Shown here one piece after another: positions 28,792 through 48,362 of a stretch of 64,000 bases of DNA (within the stretch, counting starts at the first letter, position 1; each line of letters starts with the position of its first letter). Both the position numbers and the translations under genes were made by a program. The notes beneath the pieces are model-generated. The model searched no databases. It was not told the origin of the DNA and was given only the letters and a program-made list of their open reading frames with translations. The DNA lies in assembly GCF_030013595.1 (NCBI RefSeq), contig NZ_CP122768.1; one strand, given 5' to 3'. The DNA comes from Escherichia coli (GTDB lineage: Bacteria; Pseudomonadota; Gammaproteobacteria; Enterobacterales; Enterobacteriaceae).

Positions 28792-29067
28792 CTATCGCAC
28801 AGGATGAATAAGATAATTCGCCTTTGTCGGAAAAGGGGGCGTGATGTCTTCTGTGAGATTTAATGGTGGCGCATCTTCTCTCATCTTAAACAAAATCGCC
28901 TGTGATGGCTGAAGTTTTGTAGAATGAGTTGTCGTCATCACTGACGTTTTTTCTGTCTCTTTATAGCTCGTCTCACTTCCACCACCAGAAATGGAAAATG
29001 CAAAAACATTGCATGCCATAATAGAGACCAATAAAAATAAGCTAAAAAGCATTAAGTTTACTTTCAT
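28792..29067 (-). CDS. ypdI: putative lipoprotein
   Basis: 91-aa ORF with lipoprotein signal peptide (LVSIMAC). Confidence 0.8.
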   Translation of the reverse strand: MKVNLMLFSLFLLVSIMACNVFAFSISGGGSETSYKETEKTSVMTTTHSTKLQPSQAILFKMREDAPPLNLTEDITPPFPTKANYLIHPVR

Positions 29068-29362
29068 AGAAAGTTATCCTGAGAATGGCTCACTGAGAAC
29101 CTACGATGTTATGGCTGTATTTACATTTAATTAATCAGTATTTACATCGATATAATAAATGACATCTCTTTGTGGTATATAAGAATAGTTCTCTGCGACA
29201 GGAAGCATATTCCTACAATTGTAAGACTAAAATACTTCTTGCGATAATAACTACAACTGTAAGATAACCCTTTCAAAATGACCGTTGCTCTCTGATTTCT
29301 CATTTCATGCTCACCCAATATGATGGCGGCGTTTTCTAAAACTGTTAAAGAATGAGGTAAGT

Positions 29363-29995
29363 ATGAAACGTTTAATTATGGCTACGATGGTCACAGCAAT
29401 TCTGGCATCTTCAACTGTATGGGCGGCTGATAATGCACCGGTAGCGGCACAACAGCAAACTCAGCAAGTTCAGCAAACCCAGAAAACGGCAGCAGCAGAG
29501 CGTATCTCTGAACAAGGTTTATATGCGATGCGTGACGTGCAGGTAGCGCGCCTGGCTCTGTTTCATGGCGATCCGGAAAAGGCAAAAGAACTGACCAATG
29601 AAGCTTCAGCTTTGTTGTCAGATGACAGTACCGAATGGGCAAAGTTCGCTAAGCCAGGTAAAAAAACCAATGTCAATGATGACCAATATATTGTCATTAA
29701 TGCATCTATCGGAATTTCTGAGAGTTATGTAGCGACACCCGAAAAAGAAGCCGCGATAAAAATTGCCAACGAAAAAATGGCGAAAGGGGATAAAAAGGGC
29801 GCAATGGAAGAGCTTCGCCTGGCCGGTGTTGGCGTAATGGAAAACCAATATCTGATGCCGCTCAAACAGACTCGTAATGCACTTGCTGATGCGCAGAAAC
29901 TGCTTGATAAAAAGCAATACTACGAGGCAAACCTGGCGCTTAAAGGTGCGGAAGATGGAATCATCGTCGATAGCGAAGCACTGTTTGTGAACTAA
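29363..29995 (+). CDS. yfdX: periplasmic YfdX-family protein (EvgA regulon)
   Basis: 210-aa ORF with signal peptide; synteny with frc and oxc. Confidence 0.9.
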
Positions 29996-30507
29996 TGCTG
30001 ACAGGCAGTATATTGAGGTAAAGGATTTAACTCCCTCCAGCCGACAATTTTTTATGACCACAATACGACAGATTGTGGTCATAAAATTATTTGGCGCTCG
30101 CGGTTCTATAAACTCGCATTTTATCTTCCTCAAAGTAAACCGCAATAATCCCGTGTCATCACAAATCATTTATTATGTTATGTTTTATGGTACGCTTTAA
30201 AAAGCGTAATCATACCCTTACTTGTAAATCACCGGCGCTTCTTACAGTTGTAAGAATAACATCACAAATGTCGCGGCTCTCTCTGATTACCGCGAACCAA
30301 TATTTATCATATTCTTCTTTTCGTCCTCACTACTTACCATGCAGAAAGGAATTGGAAGTGGCGATGAAATAATTTTCAGCACTTGATACAGGAATTTAAA
30401 AATATCGAGTGCAGCTACGACGATATTTTGCGGATTATTTATAGAGGGCGTTATGCCTTAAATAAACGCTAAATTAACATATATTTAATTAACTAATAGG
30501 TATTGCT

Positions 30508-31758
30508 ATGTCAACTCCACTTCAAGGAATTAAAGTTCTCGATTTCACCGGTGTGCAATCTGGCCCATCTTGTACTCAAATGCTGGCCTGGTTTGGCGCT
30601 GACGTCATTAAAATTGAACGTCCCGGCGTTGGTGACGTAACGCGTCACCAGCTGCGAGATATTCCTGATATCGATGCGCTTTACTTCACCATGCTTAACA
30701 GTAACAAACGTTCTATTGAATTAAATACCAAAACAGCGGAAGGCAAAGAGGTAATGGAAAAGCTGATCCGCGAAGCTGATATCTTAGTCGAGAACTTTCA
30801 TCCTGGGGCCATTGATCACATGGGCTTCACCTGGGAGCATATTCAAGAAATCAATCCACGTCTGATTTTTGGTTCGATCAAAGGGTTTGATGAGTGTTCG
30901 CCTTATGTGAATGTAAAAGCCTATGAAAACGTTGCTCAGGCAGCGGGTGGCGCGGCATCCACTACGGGTTTTTGGGACGGTCCGCCGCTGGTAAGCGCTG
31001 CAGCGTTGGGTGACAGCAACACCGGAATGCATTTACTGATCGGTTTACTTGCTGCTTTGCTGCATCGCGAAAAAACGGGGCGTGGGCAACGAGTCACCAT
31101 GTCAATGCAGGATGCCGTATTGAACCTTTGCCGCGTGAAATTACGCGACCAGCAGCGTCTCGATAAATTGGGTTATCTGGAAGAATACCCGCAGTATCCG
31201 AATGGCACATTTGGTGATGCAGTTCCCCGCGGAGGTAATGCGGGTGGTGGCGGTCAGCCTGGCTGGATCCTGAAATGTAAAGGCTGGGAAACCGATCCTA
31301 ACGCCTATATTTATTTCACTATTCAGGAGCAAAACTGGGAAAACACCTGTAAAGCCATCGGCAAACCAGATTGGATTACCGATCCGGCATACAGTACAGC
31401 CCATGCCCGACAGCCACATATTTTCGATATTTTTGCTGAAATCGAAAAATACACTGTCACTATTGATAAACATGAAGCGGTGGCCTATTTGACTCAGTTT
31501 GATATTCCTTGTGCACCGGTTTTAAGTATGAAAGAAATTTCACTTGATCCCTCTTTGCGCCAAAGTGGCAGTGTTGTTGAAGTGGAACAACCGTTGCGTG
31601 GAAAATATCTGACAGTTGGTTGTCCAATGAAATTCTCTGCCTTTACGCCGGATATTAAAGCTGCGCCGCTATTAGGTGAACATACCGCTGCTGTATTGCA
31701 GGCGCTGGGTTATAGCGACGATGAAATTGCTGCAATGAAGCAAAACCACGCCATCTGA
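30508..31758 (+). CDS. frc: formyl-CoA:oxalate CoA-transferase
   Basis: 416-aa class III CoA-transferase ORF. Confidence 0.97.
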
Positions 31759-31811
31759 TATTAACGGGGGCTTCTGGCTCCCAATTTATAAAAATTTCGA
31801 GGTTATTAATC

Positions 31812-33506
31812 ATGTCAGATCAACTTCAAATGACAGATGGTATGCATATCATCGTTGAAGCATTAAAACAGAATGATATTGACACTATTTATGGTGTTGT
31901 AGGTATTCCTGTGACGGATATGGCACGCCATGCCCAGGCGGAAGGCATTCGTTATATTGGTTTTCGTCATGAGCAGTCGGCAGGCTATGCCGCTGCGGCA
32001 AGCGGTTTTCTTACCCAAAAACCGGGGATCTGCCTGACAGTTTCTGCGCCAGGATTCCTCAATGGTTTGACCGCATTGGCCAACGCAACGGTAAATGGTT
32101 TTCCGATGATCATGATTAGCGGCTCCAGCGACCGCGCGATCGTCGACCTACAGCAAGGTGATTATGAAGAGCTGGACCAAATGAATGCGGCAAAACCGTA
32201 TGCCAAAGCAGCATTCCGCGTTAATCAGCCGCAGGATCTTGGCATTGCATTGGCACGCGCTATCCGGGTCTCAGTATCGGGTCGCCCTGGCGGAGTTTAT
32301 CTTGATTTACCAGCAAATGTCCTGGCCGCGACGATGGAAAAAGACGAAGCGTTAACCACGATTGTAAAAGTTGAAAATCCGTCGCCAGCATTATTGCCAT
32401 GCCCGAAGTCAGTCACTAGCGCAATTTCGCTTTTAGCAAAAGCTGAACGTCCATTAGTTATCCTTGGCAAAGGCGCGGCGTATTCACAAGCGGATGAACA
32501 GCTTCGTGAATTTATTGAAAGTGCCCAGATTCCATTCCTGCCAATGTCTATGGCGAAAGGGATCCTCGAAGATACACATCCACTTTCTGCGGCAACTGCG
32601 CGTTCGTTTGCCCTGGCAAATGCTGACGTTGTCATGCTTGTTGGTGCACGACTGAATTGGTTACTGGCACACGGTAAAAAAGGATGGGCGGCAGATACAC
32701 AGTTTATTCAACTGGATATTGAACCGCAGGAAATTGACAGCAACCGCCCCATTGCTGTGCCAGTCGTTGGCGATATTGCATCCAGTATGCAAGGTATGCT
32801 GGCAGAACTGAAACAAAACACATTTACGACTCCACTGGTATGGCGCGATATTTTAAATATCCACAAGCAGCAAAATGCACAAAAAATGCATGAAAAATTA
32901 AGTACAGATACTCAACCATTAAATTACTTTAATGCATTAAGTGCTGTGCGCGATGTATTGCGCGAGAACCAGGATATTTATTTAGTTAATGAAGGTGCAA
33001 ATACCCTGGATAATGCACGAAATATTATTGATATGTATAAACCACGTCGCCGTCTGGATTGTGGTACCTGGGGTGTCATGGGCATCGGTATGGGCTATGC
33101 CATCGGTGCTAGCGTGACCTCTGGTTCTCCGGTTGTCGCCATTGAAGGTGATAGTGCTTTTGGTTTCAGTGGGATGGAGATTGAAACGATTTGTCGATAT
33201 AACCTGCCGGTGACGATCGTTATTTTTAATAATGGCGGCATCTACAGAGGAGACGGTGTTGATCTCAGTGGCGCTGGTGCACCATCACCAACAGATCTAT
33301 TGCACCATGCAAGGTATGACAAATTAATGGATGCGTTTCGTGGCGTTGGCTATAACGTCACTACGACAGATGAACTTCGTCATGCTTTAACCACCGGTAT
33401 TCAGTCGCGCAAACCGACCATTATTAATGTGGTCATCGACCCTGCAGCAGGAACTGAAAGTGGCCATATTACCAAACTTAACCCAAAACAAGTCGCTGGT
33501 AATTAA
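31812..33506 (+). CDS. oxc: oxalyl-CoA decarboxylase (ThDP-dependent)
   Basis: 564-aa ORF with ThDP-binding motif GDSAFGFSGMEIETICRYNLPVTIVIFNNGG. Confidence 0.97.
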   Translation: MSDQLQMTDGMHIIVEALKQNDIDTIYGVVGIPVTDMARHAQAEGIRYIGFRHEQSAGYAAAASGFLTQKPGICLTVSAPGFLNGLTALANATVNGFPMIMISGSSDRAIVDLQQGDYEELDQMNAAKPYAKAAFRVNQPQDLGIALARAIRVSVSGRPGGVYLDLPANVLAATMEKDEALTTIVKVENPSPALLPCPKSVTSAISLLAKAERPLVILGKGAAYSQADEQLREFIESAQIPFLPMSMAKGILEDTHPLSAATARSFALANADVVMLVGARLNWLLAHGKKGWAADTQFIQLDIEPQEIDSNRPIAVPVVGDIASSMQGMLAELKQNTFTTPLVWRDILNIHKQQNAQKMHEKLSTDTQPLNYFNALSAVRDVLRENQDIYLVNEGANTLDNARNIIDMYKPRRRLDCGTWGVMGIGMGYAIGASVTSGSPVVAIEGDSAFGFSGMEIETICRYNLPVTIVIFNNGGIYRGDGVDLSGAGAPSPTDLLHHARYDKLMDAFRGVGYNVTTTDELRHALTTGIQSRKPTIINVVIDPAAGTESGHITKLNPKQVAGN

Positions 33507-33575
33507 ATACTGACATCGTCTCCTCTTGCCAACTCATTATGCGATGGTGAGGGGACCCTTATCGGAAATACTATT

Positions 33576-34520
33576 ATGCTAACATTTTTTATTGGCGATT
33601 TATTGCCTATTATCGTAATCATGCTGTTGGGTTATTTTAGCGGCAGACGAGAAACTTTTTCAGAAGATCAAGCCCGGGCATTTAATAAACTGGTATTAAA
33701 CTACGCTCTTCCTGCGGCTCTATTTGTATCTATTACCCGAGCAAACAGGGAAATGATTTTTGCGGACACTCGTCTGACCCTTGTATCACTTGTGGTTATT
33801 GTCGGATGTTTCTTTTTCTCCTGGTTCGGTTGCTACAAATTTTTTAAACGTACTCATGCAGAAGCAGCAGTATGTGCATTAATTGCAGGTTCACCTACCA
33901 TTGGATTCCTGGGATTTGCAGTTCTCGATCCTATTTATGGTGATTCCGTATCAACAGGTTTAGTGGTAGCAATTATTTCAATTATCGTTAACGCAATTAC
34001 TATTCCTATTGGTCTGTATTTGCTGAATCCCTCCTCAGGAGCGGATGGTAAGAAGAATAGTAATCTGAGCGCATTAATTTCTGCGGCAAAGGAGCCAGTA
34101 GTATGGGCACCTGTTCTGGCAACGATCCTGGTGTTGGTTGGGGTAAAAATTCCGGCAGCATGGGACCCAACCTTTAATCTGATTGCGAAGGCTAACTCAG
34201 GGGTAGCGGTATTCGCTGCGGGGTTGACTCTGGCTGCACATAAATTCGAGTTCAGTGCCGAAATTGCTTATAACACCTTCCTGAAGCTAATTCTGATGCC
34301 ACTGGCGCTGCTTCTCGTTGGTATGGCATGTCATTTGAACAGCGAACATTTGCAGATGATGGTACTGGCAGGCGCCTTACCGCCGGCATTCTCCGGAATC
34401 ATTATTGCCAGCCGGTTTAATGTCTACACCCGCACTGGTACAGCGTCACTGGCTGTGAGCGTACTGGGCTTTGTCGTCACGGCTCCTTTGTGGATTTATG
34501 TCAGTCGACTGGTTTCATAA
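33576..34520 (+). CDS. yfdV: AEC-family transporter
   Basis: 314-aa polytopic ORF. Confidence 0.9.
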
Positions 34521-34522
34521 TT

Positions 34523-34531
34523 AATCATGTT
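34523..34531. repeat. IS1 target-site duplication, left copy (AATCATGTT)
   Basis: 9-bp direct repeat identical to 35300-35308 immediately flanking the IS1 inverted repeats. Confidence 0.85.
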
Positions 34532-34546
34532 GGTAATGACTCCAAC

Positions 34547-35050
34547 TTACTGATAGTGTTTTATGTTCAGATAATGCCCGATGACCTTGTCATGCAGCTC
34601 CACCGATTTTGAGAACGACAGTGACTTCCGTCCCAGCCTTGCCAGATGTTGTCTCAGATTCAGGTTATGCCGCTCAATGCGCTGAGTATAACGCTTGCTG
34701 ATAACGTGCAGCTTTCCCTTCAGGCGTGATTCATACAGCGGCCAGCCATCCGTCATCCATACCACGACCTCAAAGGCCGACAGCAGGCTCAGAAGACGCT
34801 CCAGTGTGGCCAGAGTGCGTTCACCGAAGACGTGCGCCACAACCGTCCTCCGCATCCTGTCATACGCGTAAAACAGCCAGCGCTGACGTGATTTAGCACC
34901 GACGTAGCCCCACTGTTCGTCCATTTCAGCGCAGACAATCACATCACTGCCCGGTTGTATGCGCGAGGTTACCGACTGCGGCCTGAGTTTTTTAAGTGGC
35001 GGAAAATCGTGTTGAGGCCAACGCCAATAATGCGTGCACTGGCGCGACAT
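34547..35050 (-). CDS. insB: IS1 transposase InsB frame (expressed as InsAB' by -1 frameshift)
   Basis: 167-aa ORF matching IS1 InsB. Confidence 0.9.
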
Positions 35051-35244
35051 CCGACGCCATTCATGGCCATATCAATGATTTTCTGGTGCGTACCGGGCTG
35101 AGAGGCGGCGTAAGTGAACTGTAGTTGCCATGTTTTACGGCAGTGAGAGCAGAGATAGCGCTGATGTCCGGCGGTGCTTTTGCCGTTACGCACCACCCCG
35201 TCAGTAGCTGAACAGGAGGGACAGCTGATAGAAACAGAAGCCAC
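34969..35244 (-). CDS. insA: IS1 InsA transposition inhibitor/DNA-binding protein
   Basis: 91-aa ORF with CxxC...CxxC zinc finger; overlaps insB start. Confidence 0.9.
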
Positions 35245-35299
35245 TGGAGCACCTCAAAAACACCATCATACACTAAATCAGTAAGTTGGCAGCATCACC

Positions 35300-35308
35300 A
35301 ATCATGTT
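35300..35308. repeat. IS1 target-site duplication, right copy (AATCATGTT)
   Basis: Direct repeat of 34523-34531. Confidence 0.85.
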
Positions 35309-35370
35309 ATTGATTTTACATAAATGCCGAAGTGTCTTTTCACCTTCGGCTTTTTTCAAGGCATAAGCAA

Positions 35371-36516
35371 ATGACAAATAATGAATGCAAAGGGCCGTTT
35401 GAAGGCTTATTAGTTATCGATATGACACATGTCCTTAATGGACCTTTCGGAACTCAACTTCTTTGTAATATGGGCGCAAGGGTAATTAAAGTTGAGCCGC
35501 CGGGTCATGGTGATGATACCCGCACATTTGGTCCCTATGTGGATGGACAGTCACTCTATTACAGTTTTATTAATCATGGCAAAGAGAGTGTGGTTCTTGA
35601 TTTAAAGAATGATCACGATAAAAGTATATTTATAAATATGCTTAAACAAGCTGATGTATTAGCTGAGAATTTTCGCCCAGGTACAATGGAAAAACTGGGG
35701 TTTTCATGGGAAACGCTACAAGAAATCAACCCGCGTCTCATCTATGCTTCATCGTCAGGTTTTGGGCATACCGGCCCGCTAAAAGATGCTCCAGCCTACG
35801 ATACCATCATTCAGGCAATGAGCGGGATAATGATGGAAACAGGGTACCCTGATGCTCCGCCAGTGCGCGTGGGTACCTCTCTTGCGGATTTATGTGGCGG
35901 TGTCTATTTATTCAGTGGAATAGTGAGTGCACTTTATGGCCGCGAAAAGAGCCAGAGAGGGGCGCATGTCGATATAGCGATGTTTGATGCCACGCTGAGT
36001 TTTCTGGAGCATGGTCTGATGGCATATATTGCGACAGGGAAGTCACCACAACGCCTGGGAAATCGCCATCCCTACATGGCACCTTTTGATGTTTTTGATA
36101 CTCAGGATAAGCCGATTACTATTTGTTGTGGTAATGACAAGCTTTTTTCTGCGTTATGCCAGGCACTGGATCTGACGGAGCTGGTTGATGATCCCCGATT
36201 TATCAGCAATATTTTACGCGTACAAAACCAGGCTATTCTTAAACAATATATTGAGCGAACGTTAAAAACGCAGGCAGCTGAAGTTTGGTTAGCCAAAATA
36301 CATGAAGTTGGTGTGCCCGTCGCGCCGTTATTAAGTGTGGCTGAGGCCATTAATTTGCCACAAACTCAGGCGAGAAATATGTTGATTGAAGCCGGAGGAA
36401 TAATGATGCCAGGTAATCCGATAAAAATCAGCGGCTGCGCGGACCCGCATGTTATGCCGGGAGCGGCAACGCTCGACCAGCATGGGGAACAAATTCGCCA
36501 GGAGTTCTCATCATAA
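35371..36516 (+). CDS. yfdE: acetyl-CoA:oxalate CoA-transferase (class III CoA-transferase)
   Basis: ORF 35332-36516; start refined to ATG 35371 (MTNNECKGPFEGLLVIDMTHV..., 381 aa). Confidence 0.9.
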   Translation: MTNNECKGPFEGLLVIDMTHVLNGPFGTQLLCNMGARVIKVEPPGHGDDTRTFGPYVDGQSLYYSFINHGKESVVLDLKNDHDKSIFINMLKQADVLAENFRPGTMEKLGFSWETLQEINPRLIYASSSGFGHTGPLKDAPAYDTIIQAMSGIMMETGYPDAPPVRVGTSLADLCGGVYLFSGIVSALYGREKSQRGAHVDIAMFDATLSFLEHGLMAYIATGKSPQRLGNRHPYMAPFDVFDTQDKPITICCGNDKLFSALCQALDLTELVDDPRFISNILRVQNQAILKQYIERTLKTQAAEVWLAKIHEVGVPVAPLLSVAEAINLPQTQARNMLIEAGGIMMPGNPIKISGCADPHVMPGAATLDQHGEQIRQEFSS

Positions 36517-36571
36517 ATGTAAGATGTGCTGGTAAATAGCTCCCACATTTGAATATTGTGGGAGCCGCTAT

Positions 36572-39500
36572 TTAGTCATTTTGTTGACAGAAAACAGCTA
36601 TCTCCTGGTCCAGCTCTGCAATGTGTTCTTTAACAGAGTTCAGCAGCTGAAGAATTTCAGGCTTACTGTCATCTGAAACAGGTGTTATTTCTAACTGATG
36701 GCTAATATTAATCAACTTTTGCAAATTCAGGATGTTAGCCGCACCGTGGATGCGATGAATACACTGATGGAAAGTTCTGTTGTCGCCAGCTTCTAGTGCA
36801 TGAAACGCAGCGGGTAGATCTTTATGCGTTTCATGCTGGAAAGTCATGAGAATCTCCTGCATCAGTTGTAGATCGTTCGCCGTATTATTTTTCAGGGCCT
36901 CGATATCAAGGTGGCGATACTGAGGTGCAATAGGCGCAACCTGGTGTAACTGACTTAAATGTGTTTTCAGTACATCCAGGGTCAACGGTTTGAACAAACA
37001 TAAGTTCATGCCGCAATTTAACCCTTTTTCACGTTCGTTAGCCTGTGCGTTGGCTGTAAGCCCCCAGATGGGTAAGGCCGAATTTTGCTCACGGAGTTTG
37101 CGAGTCAACTCAAAACCATCCATATTCGGCATATTAACGTCAGTAATAAGCAGATCATAATGTTGCATACTGACTTTGTGTAGCGCTTGCACACCATCAG
37201 TGGCTTCATCAACATCATATCCTAATAGATTTAGCTGGCGTTTGAGTAATAGCCTGTTGGTCGGATGATCATCCGCGATTAATATGCTCAACTTTTCAGG
37301 GAGTGTCATAGGTTGTTCTGCTTTTGCCTCGACAGTCGCCACTTGTTGGGTAATTTCTACCGGGATTGTGATCGTAAATGTCGTTCCTATGCCTGGATGA
37401 CTTTCTAATGACAAATCGCCCTGCATGTTTTTAATTAATTCTTTGCAGATCATTAAGCCTAAACCAGAACCTGTTTGCTGACGACCTGCACTTGTTTGGC
37501 TATAGCGTTTAAACAGTTGTTGTTGTTCTTCCTGCGATAATCCACTTCCAGAATCCATAATCGTCATTTTGATTACAGCGTGGTTGTCATCAATGTTAAC
37601 CAGGGAGGTCGTAATTTTTACTGCCCCCTCGGTGGTAAATTTGAGAGCATTGCTCAGTAAATTAGATAAGACCTGCTTAAACGCCTGAGGGTCGATCTTA
37701 ACCAGGTAATGTTCAGGAAACGTACTGCTGCAACTTAATGCGATGGATTTGCTTGCAGCAATCGCACCGAAAGAGTGACAAGTGTTCTGGACTAAAGTAG
37801 GGATATCGACCCATTGTGGTTGAAGTTGATAGTTACCCGACTCAATTTTGTCGACATCAAGGATTTCACCAATTAAGCCGAGGAGTGATTGTCCGGTGGC
37901 GTAGGCAAGTGAAATCGCCTCCACCCGTTGTTCCTTGCTAAGACCAGAACCCGACAGAAGTTCCAGGAAGCCCATAATGGAGCTTATTGGTGTTCTTATT
38001 TCGTGACTCATTGTTGCCAGAAACTGACTTTTTGCGACAGTTGCATTGATCGCTTTATTTCTCTCTACTTCGAGAGCGTGAATTAAATCACGTGTCTCGG
38101 TAATATCTTGCCAACCACAAATATAAACAGCATGATCGCTGGCTGGCAGATTGCATAATGTATGCCAGTGATTAATGCATCTTTTCTCGATGCCATTATC
38201 AATTTCAAATACCTGTGTGTATATTGTTCGATTTTCTTTCGTTTCTGCTGTGACTTCATGCGCATTAGAAAAAACATCTTTAAAGGGTGAGTCACTGTTT
38301 TCTAATGGTAACATTGCATTTTTGTAGTAATCCGCAGTGAAATAATGTTCAAAAGCACTATTATGACTAATGACATTACCTTGCCAGTTTACAACATAAG
38401 TTGGATTCGGTAAGGAATCCGAGAGTGCTTTTCGGAATGATATTTGGTTTTCTAAATCACCCTGAATGACTTTACGACGACGAACTGAGCGTAACAGGTA
38501 GAATCCCCATAAAAGGCTACTGCCAACTAATAAAACGGATAATGTCGTGACAATATAAAATTGCTCGCTATAGAGGTCCCATGTGTCAATGGTCACATTG
38601 GGCATTTTAATCCATTTTTCCGTCAGGCGCAGAACTTCGCTTGGGGGAATTGCATTCAGAGCTTTATTAATAATATCCTTAAGTTCCGGTTCTCCGCGAG
38701 GAAAAGCGAACGAAAGCGATGCATTCTGAACGCCGGGAATAAGAAAATGATAAAGTTCATTAGGATAGTAATGGTCGATCATGTAACGCGAATTTAGCTG
38801 TGTCGCGACCAGAGCATCAAGTTCACCTTCCTTGACCTTGTGAAATGCAGCGCTGGCGTTATCGACTTTTATCCACTCTACCTCCGGATACATCTCTTTT
38901 AATTGCGAATGCAGCTCATAATAATATGGAATGGCAACTTTCATTCCTTTTTTTAATGTTTGTTCACTGTCAGGCGCTTTTTGCATGACAAAAACGTAAG
39001 GCGTTGTTATGAAGGCTTCAGCAAATAAAACATTATTTTCTCTATCTTCACTATAAATAGCACCGGGTAATATATCCCATCCGCCGGGATTCAGCTGTGT
39101 TCCAGCATGGATATTGTGTGAAACGGTGATCGGAGAAAAATTTAAACCTGTTTGCAAGGTAATAATATTAAGAATATCCCCCATAACGCCCCGAACCGAG
39201 CCATTTTCATCCGTCATAGAATAGGGAGGGGAGTAAGGATTTTCCAACACCTTTAAATCGGGATGCTGCTTAATCCACTGTTTTTCATGTTCAGTGAGTT
39301 CTAATGGTTTGTTCAGAAAGGCCAGGTTTCCTGTATCAAGCCAATTTTGTGATACTTCATAGCGAACTTCGTTTGTCAAAGCATCAACAAATCGATTGAG
39401 TACTTCATTAAGAACGACAGATTCTTTTCTGGTCAAGAAAAAATTATATTGACGCGGTGAGTTATAATATTTCACTACATTTAAGGAGTGAGTGAAATAG

Positions 39501-40165
39501 CGGGAAATCATACTGCTGGTAATAATGTTACTACCAATAAAGTAATCATTCTGTCCGGCTGAGACGGATGCTAATGCCTGATATAAATTTGTAAAAGAGA
39601 TAATTGTTGCTTTTGGAAATGATTGATGAATTACCTCATCTGGAGGGTAATTTGCTACCCGAGCAATATTTACTGGTTTTGATGAGGTAAGCGGTCTCAT
39701 TGAATCGTGAAGGGTGGTGACCAGCGCCGGAAAGGTAATTATCAGCGGTTTGGTTGCAGCAATGTCATCATTAAGAGGCGGCGAAGCAACTAAATGTGAT
39801 AACACTATATCGACTTCCCCTTCTGTAAGCGCGTCCATTGCTTTTTGATGATCTGCGTATTCCCGGAGTGTTAATTTGATATTTAACGCTCTTTTTAAAA
39901 GATTTAAATAATCAGCATTAATACCACGAACCCGTTGCTGCGAATCGGTACGCAACAAAGTAGCCGTTTGGGACTTGTGTACTGCAATCACAAGATTTTT
40001 TTTGCTCGCTAACCAACGTAATTCCTTGTTGCTCAGACGTAGTGGATCAAGCGTGACACGGTTGTTACTACTGATGCCACGATATTCGATGTAATCTTCG
40101 TCTGCGAAACTTATAGTCGACCAAAGACCACAACAGAGAAGAATAATATAGGGTAAAAACTTCAT
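36572..40165 (-). CDS. evgS: hybrid sensor histidine kinase (periplasmic SBP-like domains, HisKA, REC, HPt)
   Basis: 1197-aa ORF. Confidence 0.95.
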   Translation of the reverse strand: MKFLPYIILLCCGLWSTISFADEDYIEYRGISSNNRVTLDPLRLSNKELRWLASKKNLVIAVHKSQTATLLRTDSQQRVRGINADYLNLLKRALNIKLTLREYADHQKAMDALTEGEVDIVLSHLVASPPLNDDIAATKPLIITFPALVTTLHDSMRPLTSSKPVNIARVANYPPDEVIHQSFPKATIISFTNLYQALASVSAGQNDYFIGSNIITSSMISRYFTHSLNVVKYYNSPRQYNFFLTRKESVVLNEVLNRFVDALTNEVRYEVSQNWLDTGNLAFLNKPLELTEHEKQWIKQHPDLKVLENPYSPPYSMTDENGSVRGVMGDILNIITLQTGLNFSPITVSHNIHAGTQLNPGGWDILPGAIYSEDRENNVLFAEAFITTPYVFVMQKAPDSEQTLKKGMKVAIPYYYELHSQLKEMYPEVEWIKVDNASAAFHKVKEGELDALVATQLNSRYMIDHYYPNELYHFLIPGVQNASLSFAFPRGEPELKDIINKALNAIPPSEVLRLTEKWIKMPNVTIDTWDLYSEQFYIVTTLSVLLVGSSLLWGFYLLRSVRRRKVIQGDLENQISFRKALSDSLPNPTYVVNWQGNVISHNSAFEHYFTADYYKNAMLPLENSDSPFKDVFSNAHEVTAETKENRTIYTQVFEIDNGIEKRCINHWHTLCNLPASDHAVYICGWQDITETRDLIHALEVERNKAINATVAKSQFLATMSHEIRTPISSIMGFLELLSGSGLSKEQRVEAISLAYATGQSLLGLIGEILDVDKIESGNYQLQPQWVDIPTLVQNTCHSFGAIAASKSIALSCSSTFPEHYLVKIDPQAFKQVLSNLLSNALKFTTEGAVKITTSLVNIDDNHAVIKMTIMDSGSGLSQEEQQQLFKRYSQTSAGRQQTGSGLGLMICKELIKNMQGDLSLESHPGIGTTFTITIPVEITQQVATVEAKAEQPMTLPEKLSILIADDHPTNRLLLKRQLNLLGYDVDEATDGVQALHKVSMQHYDLLITDVNMPNMDGFELTRKLREQNSALPIWGLTANAQANEREKGLNCGMNLCLFKPLTLDVLKTHLSQLHQVAPIAPQYRHLDIEALKNNTANDLQLMQEILMTFQHETHKDLPAAFHALEAGDNRTFHQCIHRIHGAANILNLQKLINISHQLEITPVSDDSKPEILQLLNSVKEHIAELDQEIAVFCQQND

Positions 40166-40169
40166 GTGG

Positions 40170-40784
40170 TTAGCCGATTTTGTTACGTTGTGCGAATGTG
40201 TAAAGATCCATCAGTGATTTACATTCTAATTTTTCCATCAGGCGACTTTTATAAGTGCTGACAGTTTTGTTGCTGATGAACATTTTTTCCGCAATGTCAT
40301 TATTATCCTTGCCATCAAGAATATATCGCATGACACTAATTTCTTGTTTCGATAAGGAGTCGAGTTTTTGCTGGTCGGACGTTAAACTTCCAACAAACCG
40401 GTTGAGAGAGAAGGGGAAATAGCAGTAGCCATTTTTTGCAGCTTCAATAGCCGCAATGATATTGTTCATGCCTTCTTTTTTACTCACGAATCCATTAGCG
40501 CCAGCATCAGCACAATGTTTCCCGTAAAAATGGTCATTTTTAGCGGAGACGATAATAATAATTCCGCTATATTGGCGCTTCCTCAGCGTTTCTAACACCT
40601 GGATACCGTTAACTCCGGGGATATCGACATCAATGATGACGATATCAGGTTTAAGTGTTTCCACCCGCTGAACGGCACTTCCCCCTTCAGTCAACTCCGC
40701 TAAGATTTCAATATCGTTTTTGATCAATAAATTACGAATTGCTGCGATAGCAAGAGGATGGTCATCAATAATTATTGCGTTCAT
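40170..40784 (-). CDS. evgA: NarL/FixJ-family response regulator
   Basis: 204-aa ORF with REC and LuxR-type HTH. Confidence 0.95.
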   Translation of the reverse strand: MNAIIIDDHPLAIAAIRNLLIKNDIEILAELTEGGSAVQRVETLKPDIVIIDVDIPGVNGIQVLETLRKRQYSGIIIIVSAKNDHFYGKHCADAGANGFVSKKEGMNNIIAAIEAAKNGYCYFPFSLNRFVGSLTSDQQKLDSLSKQEISVMRYILDGKDNNDIAEKMFISNKTVSTYKSRLMEKLECKSLMDLYTFAQRNKIG

Positions 40785-41199
40785 AGATTATTCCCTTGGC
40801 AATGAAGCATCTCCCTTCTCCCTGTAGTAATACAGACATAAGGCATCATCTCATTTTCTCAATAAAAATAAGAAAATTTGAGCTTCCTTTAAGATAATTC
40901 GACAAGTATACCATATAAATAGTCGGCATAAATGAAATGTCAACAATAAAATCAGGGATTGTACCGATGATTTATAGTTTCACATTAGCACTATAAGTCT
41001 TCTCACTAATCCTACATGCGTAAGAATTGTATTGCAAAAGCTACGGTTTAGTCCTCTGTTGTTTTTTTTGCACCTCATTTAAATTAGGCCTCCAACGTTC
41101 CTGGGACAATGTGCAACACATGCACTGTGTTTGATATGAAGAATGAATACTCTTTTCATTCAATTCATAAATTTCATCTATGCGAAATGAGAGATAATA

Positions 41200-42363
41200 G
41201 TGGAACAGATTAATTCAAATAAAAAACATTCTAACAGAAGAAAATACTTTTCTTTATTGGCGGTAGTTTTATTTATTGCGTTTTCAGGTGCCTATGCCTA
41301 TTGGTCAATGGAATTAGAAGACATGATTAGTACAGATGATGCCTATGTCACGGGGAATGCAGATCCAATTTCTGCACAAGTTTCAGGCAGCGTCACTGTC
41401 GTTAATCATAAAGATACGAACTACGTTCGACAGGGTGACATTTTAGTCTCACTGGATAAGACTGATGCCACTATCGCACTCAATAAAGCTAAAAATAATC
41501 TGGCAAATATTGTTCGGCAAACGAATAAACTGTACTTACAGGATAAACAATACAGTGCCGAAGTCGCTTCAGCACGTATTCAGTATCAACAATCTTTAGA
41601 AGATTATAACCGTCGTGTGCCTTTAGCGAAGCAGGGGGTTATTTCAAAAGAAACGCTGGAGCATACCAAAGATACGTTAATAAGTAGCAAAGCGGCATTG
41701 AATGCCGCTATCCAGGCTTATAAAGCGAATAAAGCTTTAGTAATGAACACACCATTAAACCGTCAGCCACAAGTCGTTGAAGCTGCGGATGCAACCAAAG
41801 AAGCCTGGTTGGCGCTTAAACGTACGGATATTAAGAGTCCGGTTACCGGCTATATTGCCCAGCGAAGTGTTCAGGTCGGCGAAACAGTGAGTCCCGGACA
41901 ATCGTTAATGGCTGTCGTACCGGCACGTCAAATGTGGGTTAATGCTAACTTTAAAGAAACACAACTCACGGATGTACGGATTGGTCAATCGGTCAATATT
42001 ATCAGCGATCTTTATGGTGAAAATGTTGTGTTTCATGGTCGGGTGACAGGGATCAATATGGGAACCGGCAATGCGTTCTCCTTATTACCTGCACAAAATG
42101 CGACAGGGAACTGGATCAAAATCGTTCAGCGTGTACCGGTTGAAGTTTCTCTTGATCCAAAAGAACTCATGGAACATCCCTTACGTATTGGTTTATCGAT
42201 GACAGCAACTATTGATACGAAGAACGAAGACATTGCCGAGATGCCTGAGCTGGCTTCAACCGTGACGTCCATGCCTGCTTATACCAGTAAGGCTTTAGTT
42301 ATCGATACCAGTCCGATAGAAAAAGAAATTAGCAACATTATTTCGCATAATGGACAACTTTAA
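41200..42363 (+). CDS. emrK: multidrug efflux membrane fusion protein
   Basis: 387-aa ORF, GTG start, HlyD-family. Confidence 0.9.
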   Translation: MEQINSNKKHSNRRKYFSLLAVVLFIAFSGAYAYWSMELEDMISTDDAYVTGNADPISAQVSGSVTVVNHKDTNYVRQGDILVSLDKTDATIALNKAKNNLANIVRQTNKLYLQDKQYSAEVASARIQYQQSLEDYNRRVPLAKQGVISKETLEHTKDTLISSKAALNAAIQAYKANKALVMNTPLNRQPQVVEAADATKEAWLALKRTDIKSPVTGYIAQRSVQVGETVSPGQSLMAVVPARQMWVNANFKETQLTDVRIGQSVNIISDLYGENVVFHGRVTGINMGTGNAFSLLPAQNATGNWIKIVQRVPVEVSLDPKELMEHPLRIGLSMTATIDTKNEDIAEMPELASTVTSMPAYTSKALVIDTSPIEKEISNIISHNGQL

Positions 42364-43901
42364 TGGCAATCACTAAATCAACTCCGGCACCATTAACCGG
42401 TGGGACGTTATGGTGCGTCACTATTGCATTGTCATTAGCGACGTTTATGCAAATGTTGGATTCCACTATTTCTAACGTCGCAATACCGACAATATCTGGC
42501 TTTCTGGGAGCATCAACAGACGAAGGCACCTGGGTTATCACTTCGTTTGGCGTAGCAAATGCCATTGCGATCCCTGTTACCGGCAGGCTGGCACAAAGAA
42601 TAGGCGAATTAAGATTATTTTTACTTTCAGTCACTTTTTTTTCGCTGTCTTCCTTAATGTGTAGCCTATCGACCAATCTTGATGTGCTGATATTTTTTAG
42701 AGTCGTTCAGGGGTTAATGGCGGGGCCGTTAATTCCACTGTCACAGAGTTTATTATTAAGGAATTATCCGCCAGAAAAAAGAACATTTGCTTTGGCATTA
42801 TGGTCAATGACCGTAATTATCGCTCCGATATGTGGGCCGATATTGGGCGGCTATATTTGCGATAACTTTAGCTGGGGTTGGATATTTTTAATCAATGTCC
42901 CTATGGGGATTATCGTCCTGACATTATGCTTAACCTTACTTAAAGGAAGAGAAACTGAGACTTCACCGGTCAAAATGAATCTACCAGGACTGACCCTGTT
43001 AGTGCTCGGTGTTGGTGGCTTGCAAATTATGCTCGATAAAGGGCGCGATCTGGATTGGTTCAACTCGAGTACAATAATAATACTAACAGTAGTGTCAGTT
43101 ATTTCTCTGATCTCTTTAGTCATTTGGGAGTCGACCTCAGAGAATCCGATTCTTGACCTCAGTTTGTTTAAGTCCCGTAATTTCACCATTGGTATTGTGA
43201 GTATCACATGCGCGTATTTATTTTACTCTGGGGCAATAGTCCTTATGCCGCAATTACTCCAGGAAACGATGGGGTATAATGCGATATGGGCCGGACTTGC
43301 CTATGCGCCCATCGGCATCATGCCGCTATTAATATCACCTTTGATAGGACGTTATGGCAACAAAATTGATATGCGGTTATTGGTGACATTTAGTTTTTTA
43401 ATGTATGCGGTTTGCTATTACTGGCGTTCTGTGACATTTATGCCAACGATTGATTTTACAGGCATCATTTTGCCACAGTTTTTCCAGGGATTCGCCGTTG
43501 CCTGTTTCTTTTTACCCTTAACAACGATTTCGTTTTCAGGGTTGCCAGATAATAAATTTGCCAATGCCTCGAGTATGAGTAATTTTTTTCGTACCTTGTC
43601 AGGATCAGTTGGTACGTCGTTGACAATGACGCTGTGGGGACGACGCGAATCGTTACACCATAGTCAGTTGACAGCAACCATCGATCAATTTAACCCCGCG
43701 TTTAATTCATCGTCACAAATTATGGATAAATACTATGGTTCGCTTTCAGGAGTTCTTAATGAAATTAATAGTGAAATAACCCAGCAGTCACTTTCTATTT
43801 CTGCAAATGAGATTTTCCGTATGGCGGCTATTGCTTTTATCTTACTTACGGTTTTGGTTTGGTTTGCGAAACCGCCGTTTACAGCGAAAGGCGTTGGGTG
43901 A
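42363..43901 (+). CDS. emrY: MFS multidrug efflux pump (14-TM DHA2 family)
   Basis: 512-aa ORF; ATG overlaps emrK stop (TAATG). Confidence 0.95.
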   Translation: MAITKSTPAPLTGGTLWCVTIALSLATFMQMLDSTISNVAIPTISGFLGASTDEGTWVITSFGVANAIAIPVTGRLAQRIGELRLFLLSVTFFSLSSLMCSLSTNLDVLIFFRVVQGLMAGPLIPLSQSLLLRNYPPEKRTFALALWSMTVIIAPICGPILGGYICDNFSWGWIFLINVPMGIIVLTLCLTLLKGRETETSPVKMNLPGLTLLVLGVGGLQIMLDKGRDLDWFNSSTIIILTVVSVISLISLVIWESTSENPILDLSLFKSRNFTIGIVSITCAYLFYSGAIVLMPQLLQETMGYNAIWAGLAYAPIGIMPLLISPLIGRYGNKIDMRLLVTFSFLMYAVCYYWRSVTFMPTIDFTGIILPQFFQGFAVACFFLPLTTISFSGLPDNKFANASSMSNFFRTLSGSVGTSLTMTLWGRRESLHHSQLTATIDQFNPAFNSSSQIMDKYYGSLSGVLNEINSEITQQSLSISANEIFRMAAIAFILLTVLVWFAKPPFTAKGVG

Positions 43902-44008
43902 TGGTAAAAGCAGGGGGTTATAGCGGGTAAGACCGGGGATCTTAAGTCTGCGCCATCGGCAGCATCGCTCACCCAGGGAAAGGATGGCGATGCTGCATTG
44001 AAAATTAA

Positions 44009-45337
44009 TTAGCGGCCTTTTGCCAGATATTGCTCCATCTCTTCTTCCGGCACCATTCCACCTCCCGTCGCCCACACCAGATGAGTGGCATTACGCAGTT
44101 GTTCTGCGCTGAAACCGTGCATCTGTTGGTAACTTACTGATGCGCACACGCGCTGAGGCCCGGCCATACCCGCCAGTGCCGAAGGTTCAAGACGAATACC
44201 TTCTTCCTGCGCCAGCCAGCCAAGCATGTCATACATGGTTTGATCGCTAAGGGTATAGAAGCCATCCAGTAGACGCTCCATTGCCCGCCCGACAAAGCCT
44301 GATGCGCGACCAACTGCAAGGCCATCCGCTGCGGTAAGGTTGTCGATACCAATATCCTGAACAGAAATCTGATCGTGTAATCCTGTATGGACGCCTAACA
44401 GCATACAAGGGGAGTGCGTTGGTTCGGCAAAAAAGCAGTGAACATGATCGCCAAATGCCAGTTTAAGCCCGAATGCGACGCCACCAGGACCACCGCCAAC
44501 ACCACACGGCAGATAGACAAACAGAGGGTTATCAGCATCGACAATACGACCTTGCTCGGCAAATTGCGCTTTAAGACGCTGGCCTGCGACGGAATACCCA
44601 AGGAACAACGTGCGGGAATTCTCGTCATCAATAAAGAAACAGTTCGGGTCAGACTGCGCTGCTTTACGTCCTTCCTCGACTGCAACACCATAATCTTGCT
44701 CATATTCCACGACCGTAACGCCATGGCTGCGCAGTTTCGCTTTTTTCCATGCCCGGGCATCAGAAGACATATGTACTGTCACCTTAAAGCCAATGCGGGC
44801 GCTCATAATGCCGATTGATAACCCCAGATTTCCGGTTGAGCCCACAGCAATGCTGTATTGGCTAAAGAACTGTTTAAACTCCGGAGAAAGCAGTTTGCTG
44901 TAGTCATCTTCAGGCGTCAGCAACCCCGCTTCCAGAGCCAGTTTTTCTGCATGTGCCAGGACTTCATAAATCCCGCCGCGTGCTTTTATGGAGCCGGAAA
45001 TGGGCAAATGGCTATCTTTTTTCAGTAGCAGTTGCCCGCTGATCGGTTGTTGATATTCCTTTTCCAGCCGTTTTTGCATAGCCGGAATGGCAACCAGTTC
45101 TGATTCAATAATCCCCCCAGTCGCAGCAGTTTCAGGAAATGCTTTTGCCAGATAGGGTGCAAAACGGGATAAGCGCGCATGGGCGTCCTGAACATCCTGT
45201 TCGGTCAGGCCAACATAAGGTAAACCTTCAGCCAATGAGGTCGTGCCAGGATTAAACCAGGTGGTTTCTTTAAGAGCAACCAGATCCTTTACCAACGGAT
45301 ACTGGGCGATGAGCGAGTTCATTTTAGCGTTTTCCAT
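44009..45337 (-). CDS. dsdA: D-serine ammonia-lyase (dehydratase)
   Basis: 442-aa PLP-dependent ORF (..SGSIKARGG..). Confidence 0.95.
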
Positions 45338-45354
45338 AGTACGTCTCTTTGCGC

Positions 45355-45590
45355 TTAGATGATAAATGACAGCAGGAATGTGCCCGCCAGAGCGACGACT
45401 GAAGCGATAAATGTCGCGGTCGTATAGTATTTAAATGTTTCATTGAGCGTAGCGCCGCAATATTGCTTCACCAGCCAGAAAAGCGAGTCCGTAACGATCG
45501 TGCAGCCAATCGCACCTGAACCGATAGCAATCGCAATAATTTCCGGGCTGATGTCGGGATACAGCGGCAGCACAATGATCCATATTTATA
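45355..45590 (-). pseudogene. dsdX: 3' remnant of dsdX (GntP-family D-serine permease), truncated by the csc insertion
   Basis: Only a C-terminal hydrophobic stretch (...SPEIIAIAIGSGAIGCTIVTDSLFWLVKQY...TFLLSFII) remains immediately upstream of dsdA; no N-terminal part and no dsdC; upstream boundary approximate. Confidence 0.7.
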
Positions 45591-45815
45591 TTTTCTTCTC
45601 CAGATTGGCGATGCCAGTTGGCATGTTTTACCTACTTGTCTACATGGTTACTCGTTGGCGAGAACAGAGGCGGAATTGGGTACAATTGTCCGGGAATTAT
45701 TGTTATTTTTTATTGTATTGCCGTGTCGGGTGATAGGGCGTCGAGAATATCGTTGGATCTCGCCAGTGACGTCTGTTTCTGCTACAGTGCCCGTTTTACG
45801 GCAAACGGCTTGGGT

Positions 45816-46811
45816 ATGGCTTCATTAAAGGATGTCGCACGCCTGGCGGGAGTGTCGATGATGACAGTCTCCCGGGTGATGCATAATGCAGAATCTGTGC
45901 GTCCTGCAACGCGTAACCGCGTATTGCAGGCAATCCAGACCCTGAATTATGTTCCTGATCTTTCCGCCCGTAAGATGCGCGCTCAAGGACGTAAGCCGTC
46001 GACTCTCGCCGTGCTGGCGCAGGACACGGCCACCACTCCTTTCTCTGTTGATATTCTGCTTGCCATTGAGCAAACCGCCAGCGAGTTTGGCTGGAATAGT
46101 TTTTTAATCAATATTTTTTCTGAAGATGACGCTGCCCGCGCGGCACGTCAGCTGCTTGCCCACCGTCCGGATGGCATTATCTATACTACAATGGGGCTGC
46201 GACATATCACGCTGCCTGAGTCTCTGTATGGTGAAAATATTGTATTGGCGAACTGTGTGGCGGATGACCCAGCGTTACCCAGTTATATCCCTGATGATTA
46301 CACTGCACAATATGAATCAACACAGCATTTGCTCGCGGCGGGCTATCGTCAACCGTTATGCTTCTGGCTACCGGAAAGTGCGTTGGCAACAGGGTATCGT
46401 CGGCAGGGATTTGAGCAGGCCTGGCGTGATGCTGGACGAGATCTGGCTGAGGTGAAACAATTTCACATGGCAACAGGTGATGATCACTACACCGATCTCG
46501 CAAGTTTACTCAATGCCCACTTCAAATCGGGCAAACCAGATTTTGATGTTCTGATATGTGGTAACGATCGCGCAGCCTTTGTGGCTTATCAGGTTCTTTT
46601 GGCGAAGGGGGTACGTATCCCGAAGGATGTCGCCGTAATGGGCTTTGATAATCTGGTTGGCGTCGGGCATCTGTTTTTACCGCCGCTGACCACAATTCAG
46701 CTTCCACATGACATTATCGGGCGGGAAGCTGCATTGCATATTATTGAAGGTCGTGAAGGGGGAAGAGTGACGCGGATCCCTTGCCCGCTGTTGATCCGTT
46801 GTTCCACCTGA
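45816..46811 (+). CDS. cscR: LacI-family sucrose operon repressor
   Basis: ORF 45618-46811; start refined to ATG 45816 (MASLKDVARLAGVSMMTVSRV..., 331 aa); LacI-type HTH plus periplasmic-binding-protein fold. Confidence 0.85.
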   Translation: MASLKDVARLAGVSMMTVSRVMHNAESVRPATRNRVLQAIQTLNYVPDLSARKMRAQGRKPSTLAVLAQDTATTPFSVDILLAIEQTASEFGWNSFLINIFSEDDAARAARQLLAHRPDGIIYTTMGLRHITLPESLYGENIVLANCVADDPALPSYIPDDYTAQYESTQHLLAAGYRQPLCFWLPESALATGYRRQGFEQAWRDAGRDLAEVKQFHMATGDDHYTDLASLLNAHFKSGKPDFDVLICGNDRAAFVAYQVLLAKGVRIPKDVAVMGFDNLVGVGHLFLPPLTTIQLPHDIIGREAALHIIEGREGGRVTRIPCPLLIRCST

Positions 46812-46818
46812 TATTATG

Positions 46819-48252
46819 TTAACCCAGTTGCCAGAGTGCTCCATGTTGCAGCACAGCCACTCCGTGGGAGGCATAGAGCGACAGTTCCCGTTCTTCTGGC
46901 TGCGGATATATTCGGCTACTCATCACCGCCTCCCCGTCGTTAATAAATACTTCCACGGATGATGTATCGATAAATATCCTTAGGGCGAGCATGTCACCCT
47001 GCGGGAGGGGAATACTACGGTAGCCATCTAAATTCTCGTGTGGGTAATACCGCCACAAAACAAGTCGCTCAGATTGGTTATCAATATACAGCCGCATTCC
47101 AGCGCCGAGCTGTAATCCGTAATGTTCGGCATCACTGTTCTTCAGCGCCCACTGCAACTGAATCTCAACTGCTTGCGCGTTTTCCTGCAAAACATATTTA
47201 TTGCTGATTGTGCGGGGAGAGATAGATTGATGCTGCTGGCGTAACGACTCAGCTTCGTGTACCGGGCGTTGTAGGAGTTTGCCATTGCTCTCTGATAGCT
47301 CGCGCGCCAGCGTCATGCAGCCTGCCCAGCCTTCACGTTTTGAGGGCATTGGCGATTCCCACATATCCATCCAGCCGATAACAATACGCCGACCATCCTT
47401 CGCTACAAAGCTTTGTGGTGCATAAAAGTCATGCCCGTTATCAAGTTCAGTAAAATGCCCGGATTGTGCAAAAAGTCGTCCTGGCGACCACATTCCGGGT
47501 ATTACGCCACTTTGAAAGCGATTTCGATAACTGTATCCCTCGGCATTCATTCCCTGCGGGGAAAACATCAGATAATGCTGATCGCCAAGGCTGAAAAAGT
47601 CCGGACATTCCCACATATAGCTTTCACCCGCATCAGCGTGGGCCAGTACGCGATCGAAAGTCCATTCACGCAATGAACTGCCGCGATAAAGCAGGATCTG
47701 CCCCGTGTTGCCTGGGTCTTTCGCCCCGACTACCATCCACCATGTGTCGGCTTCACGCCACACTTTAGGATCGCGGAAGTGCATGATGCCTTCTGGTGGA
47801 GTGAGGATCACACCCTGTTTCTCGAAATGAATACCATCCCGACTGGTAGCCAGACATTGTACTTCGCGAATTGCATCGTCATTACCTGCACCATCGAGCC
47901 AGACGTGTCCGGTGTAGATAAGTGAGAGGACACCATTGTCATCGACAGCACTACCTGAAAAACACCCGTCTTTGTCATTCTCGTCTCCTGGCGCTAGCGC
48001 AATAGGCTCATGCTGCCAGTGGATCATATCGTCGCTGGTGGCATGTCCCCAGTGCATTGGCCCCCAGTGTTCGCTCATCGGGTGATGTTGATAAAACGCG
48101 TGATAACGATCGTTAAACCAGATCAGGCCGTTTGGATCGTTCATCCACCCGGCAGGAGGCGCGAGGTGAAAATGGGGATAGAAAGTGTTACCTCGGCGCT
48201 CGTGAAGTTTTGCTAGTGCGTTTTGCGCCGCATGCAATCGAGATTGCGTCAT
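46819..48252 (-). CDS. cscA: sucrose-6-phosphate hydrolase/invertase (GH32)
   Basis: ORF 46819-48261 (start 48252 or 48261); GH32 motifs WMNDPNG and RDP present. Confidence 0.9.
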   Translation of the reverse strand: MTQSRLHAAQNALAKLHERRGNTFYPHFHLAPPAGWMNDPNGLIWFNDRYHAFYQHHPMSEHWGPMHWGHATSDDMIHWQHEPIALAPGDENDKDGCFSGSAVDDNGVLSLIYTGHVWLDGAGNDDAIREVQCLATSRDGIHFEKQGVILTPPEGIMHFRDPKVWREADTWWMVVGAKDPGNTGQILLYRGSSLREWTFDRVLAHADAGESYMWECPDFFSLGDQHYLMFSPQGMNAEGYSYRNRFQSGVIPGMWSPGRLFAQSGHFTELDNGHDFYAPQSFVAKDGRRIVIGWMDMWESPMPSKREGWAGCMTLARELSESNGKLLQRPVHEAESLRQQHQSISPRTISNKYVLQENAQAVEIQLQWALKNSDAEHYGLQLGAGMRLYIDNQSERLVLWRYYPHENLDGYRSIPLPQGDMLALRIFIDTSSVEVFINDGEAVMSSRIYPQPEERELSLYASHGVAVLQHGALWQLG

Positions 48253-48286
48253 TTTAATCATCCTGGTTAAGCAAATTTGGTGAATT

Positions 48287-48298
48287 GTTAACGTTAAC
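48287..48298. promoter_or_regulatory. putative CscR operator (palindrome GTTAACGTTAAC), copy 1
   Basis: Perfect 12-bp palindrome in the divergent cscA/cscK promoter region. Confidence 0.4.
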
Positions 48299-48350
48299 TT
48301 TTATAAAAATAAAGTCCCTTACTTTCATAAATGCGATGAATATCACAAAT

Positions 48351-48362
48351 GTTAACGTTAAC
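48351..48362. promoter_or_regulatory. putative CscR operator (palindrome GTTAACGTTAAC), copy 2
   Basis: Identical 12-bp palindrome 52 bp from copy 1. Confidence 0.4.

Follow-up and report, generated by a model that had tools for sequence, protein, structure and literature searches.

Genomic context of the yfdV-yfdE spacer

The window, that is the whole 64-kb stretch of Escherichia coli DNA analysed here, carries yfdX, frc, oxc, yfdV and yfdE in this order, followed by the convergent evgS-evgA genes and then by emrKY. The arrangement is collinear with that of annotated RefSeq genomes, K-12 included. YfdE is known to function as an acetyl-CoA:oxalate CoA-transferase (PMC3720670). The genes bordering the yfdV-yfdE spacer and the element predicted within its native sequence are as follows.

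33576–34520, plus strand: yfdV, a transporter of the AEC/Mem_trans type, intact (ORF, collinearity and Pfam); 3 bp separate its stop codon from the target duplication
35326–35356, plus strand: terminator-like hairpin GCCGAAGUG-UCUUUU-CA-CCUUCGGC (35326–35350) followed by U6 (35351–35356), from RNA folding
35371–36516, plus strand: yfdE, acetyl-CoA:oxalate CoA-transferase of 381 amino acids, intact (ORF, collinearity and Pfam); its ATG lies 62 bp past the right repeat

An initial annotation of this DNA had placed an IS1 in the yfdV-yfdE spacer of an EvgA-regulated frc-oxc-yfdV-yfdE cluster, and both the collinearity and the Pfam assignments agree with that placement. The empty-site spacer is 73 bp long, reads ATT-AATCATGTT-ATTGATTTTACATAAAT-GCCGAAGTGTCTTTTCACCTTCGGC-TTTTTT-CAAGGCATAAGCAA-ATG, and was identical in sequence in eleven independent loci, K-12 among them. 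The IS1 insertion adds 777 bp and extends the untranslated gap between yfdV and yfdE from 73 to 850 nt.

The hairpin is natively located between yfdV and yfdE and now lies downstream of IS1. It was identical in all the empty-site loci examined, including K-12, and its U6 is placed 15 nt before the yfdE ATG. In the predicted fold a stem of 9 bp, interrupted by a single bulge, closes a 6-nt loop and leads into U6; the centroid energy is −12.4 kcal/mol and the z-score over a 76-nt stretch is −2.0. This structure resembles an intrinsic terminator or an attenuator between two cistrons; as the simple consensus terminator scan made no call and did not list the hairpin, the assignment is no more than a prediction. 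When the spacer was searched against Rfam at a permissive threshold, no relevant known RNA element was found. A terminator-like hairpin is odd between genes that are described as one operon, and it may be an intercistronic attenuator.

A complete IS1 flanked by a 9-bp target duplication

Sequence reading and a script identified window positions 34532–35299 as an IS1 of exactly 768 bp, with the transposase genes on the minus strand. Given this orientation, IRL forms the right end (35299) and IRR the left end (34532) of the element. The features of the element and of its immediate flanks are listed below.

34523–34531, no strand: left 9-bp target-site duplication, AATCATGTT (sequence reading and script)
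34532–35299, minus strand: IS1, with the IRL end at 35299 and the IRR end at 34532
34532–34554, minus strand: right inverted repeat IRR, GGTAATGACTCCAACTTACTGAT (sequence reading and script)
34547–35050, minus strand: insB frame (ORF list)
34547–35244, minus strand: InsAB' transposase frame, 232 amino acids after the −1 frameshift (conceptual fusion)
34969–35244, minus strand: insA, 91 amino acids, zinc ribbon plus HTH, a repressor and DNA-binding protein (ORF and Pfam)
34987–34995, minus strand: programmed −1 frameshift site A6C, TTAAAAAAC, at IS coordinates 305–313, intact
35292–35265, minus strand: insA promoter in IRL, CTGCCA-16-TATGAT, a promoter-like site from the consensus scan at the known insA promoter position
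35277–35299, minus strand: left inverted repeat IRL, GGTGATGCTGCCAACTTACTGAT, holding the insA promoter (sequence reading and script)
35286–35291, plus strand: outward −35-like box TTGGCA in IRL, directed toward yfdE, with a 5/6 match to the consensus
35300–35308, no strand: right 9-bp target-site duplication, AATCATGTT (sequence reading and script)

The element begins with GGTAATGACTCCAACTTACTGAT and closes with the reverse complement of GGTGATGCTGCCAACTTACTGAT, and the inverted repeats match at 19 of the 23 terminal bases. Its length and its imperfect terminal repeats of about 23 bp (GGTGATGCTGCCAACTTACTGAT / GGTAATGACTCCAACTTA.TGAT) are thus those of the IS1 family (~768 bp). The insA product showed the Zn_ribbon_InsA (1.5e-19) and HTH_Tnp_IS1 (1.7e-25) domains expected of an IS1 InsA, and differed from K-12 InsA at four residues. 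DDE_Tnp_IS1 was covered from 1 to 131 of its 131 positions (E = 2e-74), so that all three IS1 Pfam domains are full length. A conceptual −1 shift at the predicted A6C site would yield an InsAB' of 232 amino acids, equal in length to that of K-12. The copy is complete, with every feature that can be read from the sequence intact, and it is apparently functional.

The 9-bp sequence AATCATGTT occurs only twice in the 64-kb window when both strands are scanned, and these are the two copies flanking IS1. The direct repeat stops at 9 bp by script, and the 9-mer in front of an element would recur right behind it by chance with a probability of 3.8e-6. The uninterrupted homologous sites examined, K-12 included, had one AATCATGTT each. 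The target duplication of IS1 is known to be of 8 or 9 bp (PMC12428005), and the perfect 9-bp repeat found here, single-copy in empty sites, conforms to it. The initial annotation had described a full 768-bp IS1 with both inverted repeats and flanking direct repeats, and positions 34523–35308 comprise exactly the element with both repeats; unequal flanking repeats, which it had named as a finding against its reading, are excluded because both copies are perfect. The insertion point lies 3 bp past the yfdV stop codon and 71 bp ahead of the yfdE start codon. In the 40 bp around the target the A+T content is 80%, which is in the top 0.4% of the window. IS1 prefers AT-rich target DNA, and the composition of this target fits that preference.

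The isoform was examined by comparison with IS1A of K-12 (NC_000913.3 19796–20563). Both elements are 768 bp long and share the terminal repeats, the insA / A6C / insB' organization and a 232-residue InsAB', and the ends of the window IS1 equal those of IS1A over the first 30 terminal bases compared. Like IS1 in general, the window copy has a 9-bp target duplication and an AT-rich target. It differs from IS1A by 51 substitutions (93.4% identity, no indels) and by 13 residues of InsAB', and these differences mark it as a distinct isoform, which RefSeq labels only as 'IS1 family transposase'. Many copies that are 100% identical to it occupy various other positions, chromosomal as well as plasmid-borne, in other strains, which, together with the newness of the present insertion, speaks indirectly for transposition activity. 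Such copies were found mostly in porcine E. coli, and the many pig-associated strains that have them on chromosomes or plasmids include UMNF18, O139:H1, O141:H4 and several ETEC strains; only 150 of the 9,595 matching records had a best copy at least 99% identical to the window IS1. The variant is the one in circulation among pig-associated E. coli, in chromosomes and in plasmids.

Distribution and recency of the insertion

An empty-site query of 308 bp gave an uninterrupted, single-place match in 5,385 of the 5,426 complete RefSeq E. coli genomes (99.2%). Queries spanning the left or the right junction gave no one-piece match in complete genomes among the matches listed, a qualification that matters for about 385 IS1-rich records; the few matches with at least 80% coverage were two-piece joins to IS1 copies located 170–360 bp away. 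Fixation of the insertion across the species, named earlier as grounds for rejecting a recent origin, is excluded since other complete genomes are without the junction.

The closest relatives of the window strain are the UK pig isolates HCP5S3_I2 and LCP30S3_I5, which are 100.0% identical to it over 24.5 kb, and the site is empty in both. At base level HCP5S3_I2 differs from the window by about 18 SNPs over 51 kb and has the empty site with a single AATCATGTT. Its alignment blocks (window 28837–34531 and 35300–48483) overlap by exactly the 9-bp target, and this overlap together with the collinear flanks indicates that nothing was deleted or inverted at the insertion. The GenBank assembly GCA_030346525.1 (contig JAUANJ010000002.1, 4.1 Mb) shows 100% identity to 7,146 bp of the window, with IS1 and both repeats included. 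When GenBank assemblies were looked up by the exact YfdE protein, in 24 of the 4,225 index blocks, the identical insertion was found there only in GCA_030346525.1. A metagenome scan with the 39-nt left-junction pattern (GGTTTCATAATTAATCATGTTGGTAATGACTCCAACTTA) returned no exact matches, and no literature mention of the accession GCA_030346525.1 was found.

The IS1 copy shows zero differences from other public IS1 copies. With the site empty in nearly all genomes and in the relatives, and with the junction in none of the complete genomes among the matches listed, the event is recent and lineage specific; both the identity of the insertion and its recency we regard as virtually certain. It is best read as a recent, lineage-specific and simple transposition in the lineage of GCA_030346525.1, where the case for its absence elsewhere is strong and not absolute. 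A simple, relatively recent transposition had been claimed at the outset, and the collinear flanks, the empty site in the nearest relative and the 100% identity of the copy to others all support the claim. Only the position of the insertion is new, and it is specific to a single assembly; the element, the mechanism and the possible consequences are already known. As a marker of one E. coli lineage the insertion has little importance outside strain-level annotation, and as an ordinary IS1 it reveals no new element, mechanism or regulatory principle.

Other insertions at the locus

Thirteen genomes were found to carry an IS1 somewhere in the 2-kb neighbourhood. All of them were mapped, and none (0/13) had the element in the yfdV-yfdE spacer. 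Four sites lie in yfdV, at 33775–83, 33881–89, 34166–74 and 34200–09, two lie in yfdE, at 35469–77 and 36059–67, and one lies between yfdE and evgS. Three further cases have no duplication and show an adjacent deletion into evgS or up to emrY. The neighbourhood copies of these 13 genomes belong to other isoforms, being 93.4–95.8% identical to the window IS1. With about 10.9 chromosomal IS1 copies per genome, a uniform density predicts 7–15 genomes with an IS1 in 1.2 kb. A hotspot was therefore rejected, as the observed 13 falls within this range and all are at other positions. An apparent orientation bias (13/13 in the same orientation as the window) was also discarded as an artefact, since the search joins same-strand pieces only and an element in the opposite orientation cannot reach 80% coverage.

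These results bear on two other readings of the insertion. One holds that the position of IS1 is an assembly artefact, with a repeat copy misplaced. IS1 is multicopy, assemblers can misplace such repeats, and the insertion is present in one assembly only; against this, the 9-bp sequence present once at the empty site is perfectly duplicated around the element, a specific signature of IS1 transposition which misassembly would not make, and the element lies inside a 4.1-Mb contig, so an artefact would be highly improbable. The other takes the insertion to be of old date and wide distribution, whether inherited from an ancestor or arisen repeatedly at a hotspot, to which the 13 genomes with IS1 in the 2-kb neighbourhood would lend some colour. 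That reading can be practically dismissed, because all 13 are elsewhere, 99.2% of the genomes have an intact site, the count equals the uniform expectation and the copy has zero differences from others.

A second, independent hit on the 73-bp spacer is an IS200C found in porcine ETEC (e.g. ETEC1701, NZ_CP122938.1, 981–1691), which, like the IS1 insertion, leaves both ORFs intact. It differs from the window IS1 in belonging to the IS200/IS605 family, in having the orientation of the operon and in being common to at least 13 porcine ETEC genomes that form a clade. Its insertion point corresponds to window 35356/35357, right after the T-run of the hairpin (...CTTCGGCTTTTTT | IS200C | CAAGGCATAAGCAAATG) and 15 bp before the yfdE ATG. 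The yfdV-yfdE spacer thus tolerates IS insertions. A repeated uncoupling of yfdE from the EvgA-driven oxalate operon by IS1 and IS200C in pig-associated E. coli, hinting at selection in the pig gut, would be very unlikely; with two events only, at a locus that tolerates many IS insertions, chance is far likelier than selection on yfdE expression.

Other observations on the neighbourhood insertions were also made. Strains 3045, KUN2017-0933 and F404 carry IS1 without a duplication and have deletions of parts of evgS, of yfdE-evgS or of yfdE-emrY; these look like IS1-mediated adjacent deletions that would inactivate EvgAS acid sensing in clinical isolates. In strain LR-33 the IS1 in yfdV (window 34200–34209) is flanked by a 10-bp duplication, GGGGTAGCGG, where 9 bp is usual, and evgS of this strain is annotated with an internal stop.

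Proposed effect of the insertion on yfdE

The initial annotation had assumed that a yfdE promoter region lies downstream of IS1. Consensus scans of both the occupied and the empty spacer found no promoter-like site usable for yfdE, the sole plus-strand match of the promoter scan having its −10 hexamer inside the ORF. A yfdE promoter located between IS1 and the ATG, or split by the insertion, was rejected on these scans. The 62 bp between IS1 with its repeat and the yfdE ATG are instead taken up mostly by the hairpin and U6, followed by a Shine-Dalgarno sequence. The literature likewise describes one EvgA operon: EvgA activates yfdXWUVE, or yfdX together with yfdWUVE, EvgA boxes precede both yfdX and yfdW, and yfdE is expressed along with the other genes (PMC3720670). 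A passage of the same paper that cites Masuda and Church 2002/2003 has yfdE co-induced with the operon by EvgA. The idea of a separate yfdE promoter region could thus not be upheld.

An ordinary transposition mediated by InsAB' into the AT-rich AATCATGTT, 3 bp past the yfdV stop, duplicated the target. On the course of events that we propose, RNA polymerase leaving yfdV would now have to cross an untranslated, ribosome-free gap of 850 nt. The operon-sense strand of IS1 has stop codons in all three frames and its RNA is antisense to insAB; it also contains a C>G stretch of about 200 nt (34700–34920), which is a weak indicator of a rut site. Untranslated nascent RNA is known to lead to Rho-dependent termination and operon polarity (PMC7858274). 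The long untranslated RNA and the C>G stretch would favour Rho-dependent termination in IS1, and the EvgA-dependent expression of yfdE would then fall, whereas frc, oxc and yfdV would be unaffected. We lean slightly toward this reduction of EvgA-dependent yfdE by polarity, with frc, oxc and yfdV unaffected, as the actual outcome. IS1 is classically polar in either orientation, and the polar IS1 insertions in gal and lac act by Rho-dependent termination in the untranslated element. The window insertion resembles these in the placement of IS1 between or inside genes that are transcribed together and in the expected fall of downstream expression. It differs in being intercistronic, in breaking no ORF and in having a spacer that already contains a terminator-like hairpin, and the polarity proposed here is predicted from sequence. 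Since the native spacer already has this hairpin, such polarity might add little in absolute terms.

The opposite outcome, in which a hybrid promoter formed by IS1 would activate yfdE or make it constitutive and uncouple it from EvgA, draws on the TTGGCA box with its 5/6 match and on a TATTGA that lies at 16-bp spacing and is preceded by TG in the extended −10 position, which leaves room for some outward transcription. IS1 is known to activate a downstream gene only with a well-placed −10 at 16–18 bp from the outward −35 (PMC8764528; PMC9330008). Here the −10 candidates at 16–18 bp (TATTGA, ATTGAT and TTGATT) match at 3/6 positions each and none has both A2 and T6, the consensus scan made no plus-strand promoter call at the junction of IS1 and the flank, and any transcript from such a promoter would meet the hairpin and U6 after ~10 nt. 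A −35 box joined to a functional −10 at 16–18 bp was thus not found at the site. The documented cases of hybrid-promoter activation (afaA in ST131, acrEF and blaTEM) share with the window an outward −35 box in the inverted repeat facing the downstream gene; unlike them, the window site has no well-spaced −10 (3/6) and is followed by the hairpin. In the ST131 study, moreover, downstream transcription was either reduced or unaffected where the inserted IS1 lacked a good −10 (PMC8764528). The 3/6 candidates and the hairpin together make activation of yfdE unlikely, and the outward −35 could at best give weak constitutive transcription, to which the native hairpin would remain an obstacle. The initial annotation had suggested either polarity or an outward promoter as a possible effect on yfdE; both are plausible, and of the two it is polarity that agrees better with the sequence.

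It is also possible, though we find it doubtful, that the insertion is neutral, either because little transcription passes the native hairpin or because YfdE is dispensable. The hairpin with U6 at 15 nt before the yfdE ATG is present in all the strains examined, other genomes tolerate IS1 in yfdV, yfdE or evgS as well as IS200C in the spacer, and the neighbourhood IS1 count of 13 is that expected (7–15). However, yfdE is reported to be co-induced by EvgA, in the passage of PMC3720670 that cites Masuda and Church 2002, so that some read-through must occur, and the yfdE ORF is conserved throughout E. coli as an intact frame. A recent simple IS1 insertion, likely polar on yfdE, is accordingly the best overall explanation, and we hold it with considerable confidence. 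If the insertion is polar, it would represent a natural yfdE-polar allele of the oxalate/acid-tolerance operon, which could serve to study the contribution of YfdE in vivo.

Other differences in the window

The comparison with related genomes revealed further differences along the window. Positions 28837–28846 and 48472–48483 are empty sites in the window at which HCP5S3_I2 has, respectively, an ISVsa5 (IS10-type) separating yfdY from yfdX and, in the csc sucrose locus, an IS4. The window strain and HCP5S3_I2, nearly identical otherwise, differ mainly in their IS content. The match to the nearest relative ends at ~51163, and the region from there to 64000 holds the early region of a lambda-like prophage adjoining cscB. 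The prophage genes assigned by similarity to strain PCP06235 are torI, exo, bet, gam, kil, cIII, N, a cI-like repressor, cII, O, P, ren and ninB. The nearest relative has a P4/P2-type element at the prophage position, and coverage of window 48000–64000 by any complete genome is at most 77%.

In the divergent evgA/emrK promoter region, at window ~41062, a T-run (tgttttttttgc) is one T longer than in the nearest relative; the extra T may be either a true length variant or a sequencing error in the homopolymer. Two tandem tRNA-Ala(GGC) genes are present at window 6883–7073, where the nearest relative has one, and within window 3907–4184 the spacer between two tRNA-Val genes (~4068–4108) differs in sequence from that of the relative. 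Both of these tRNA differences look like the products of recombination among tandem tRNA genes.
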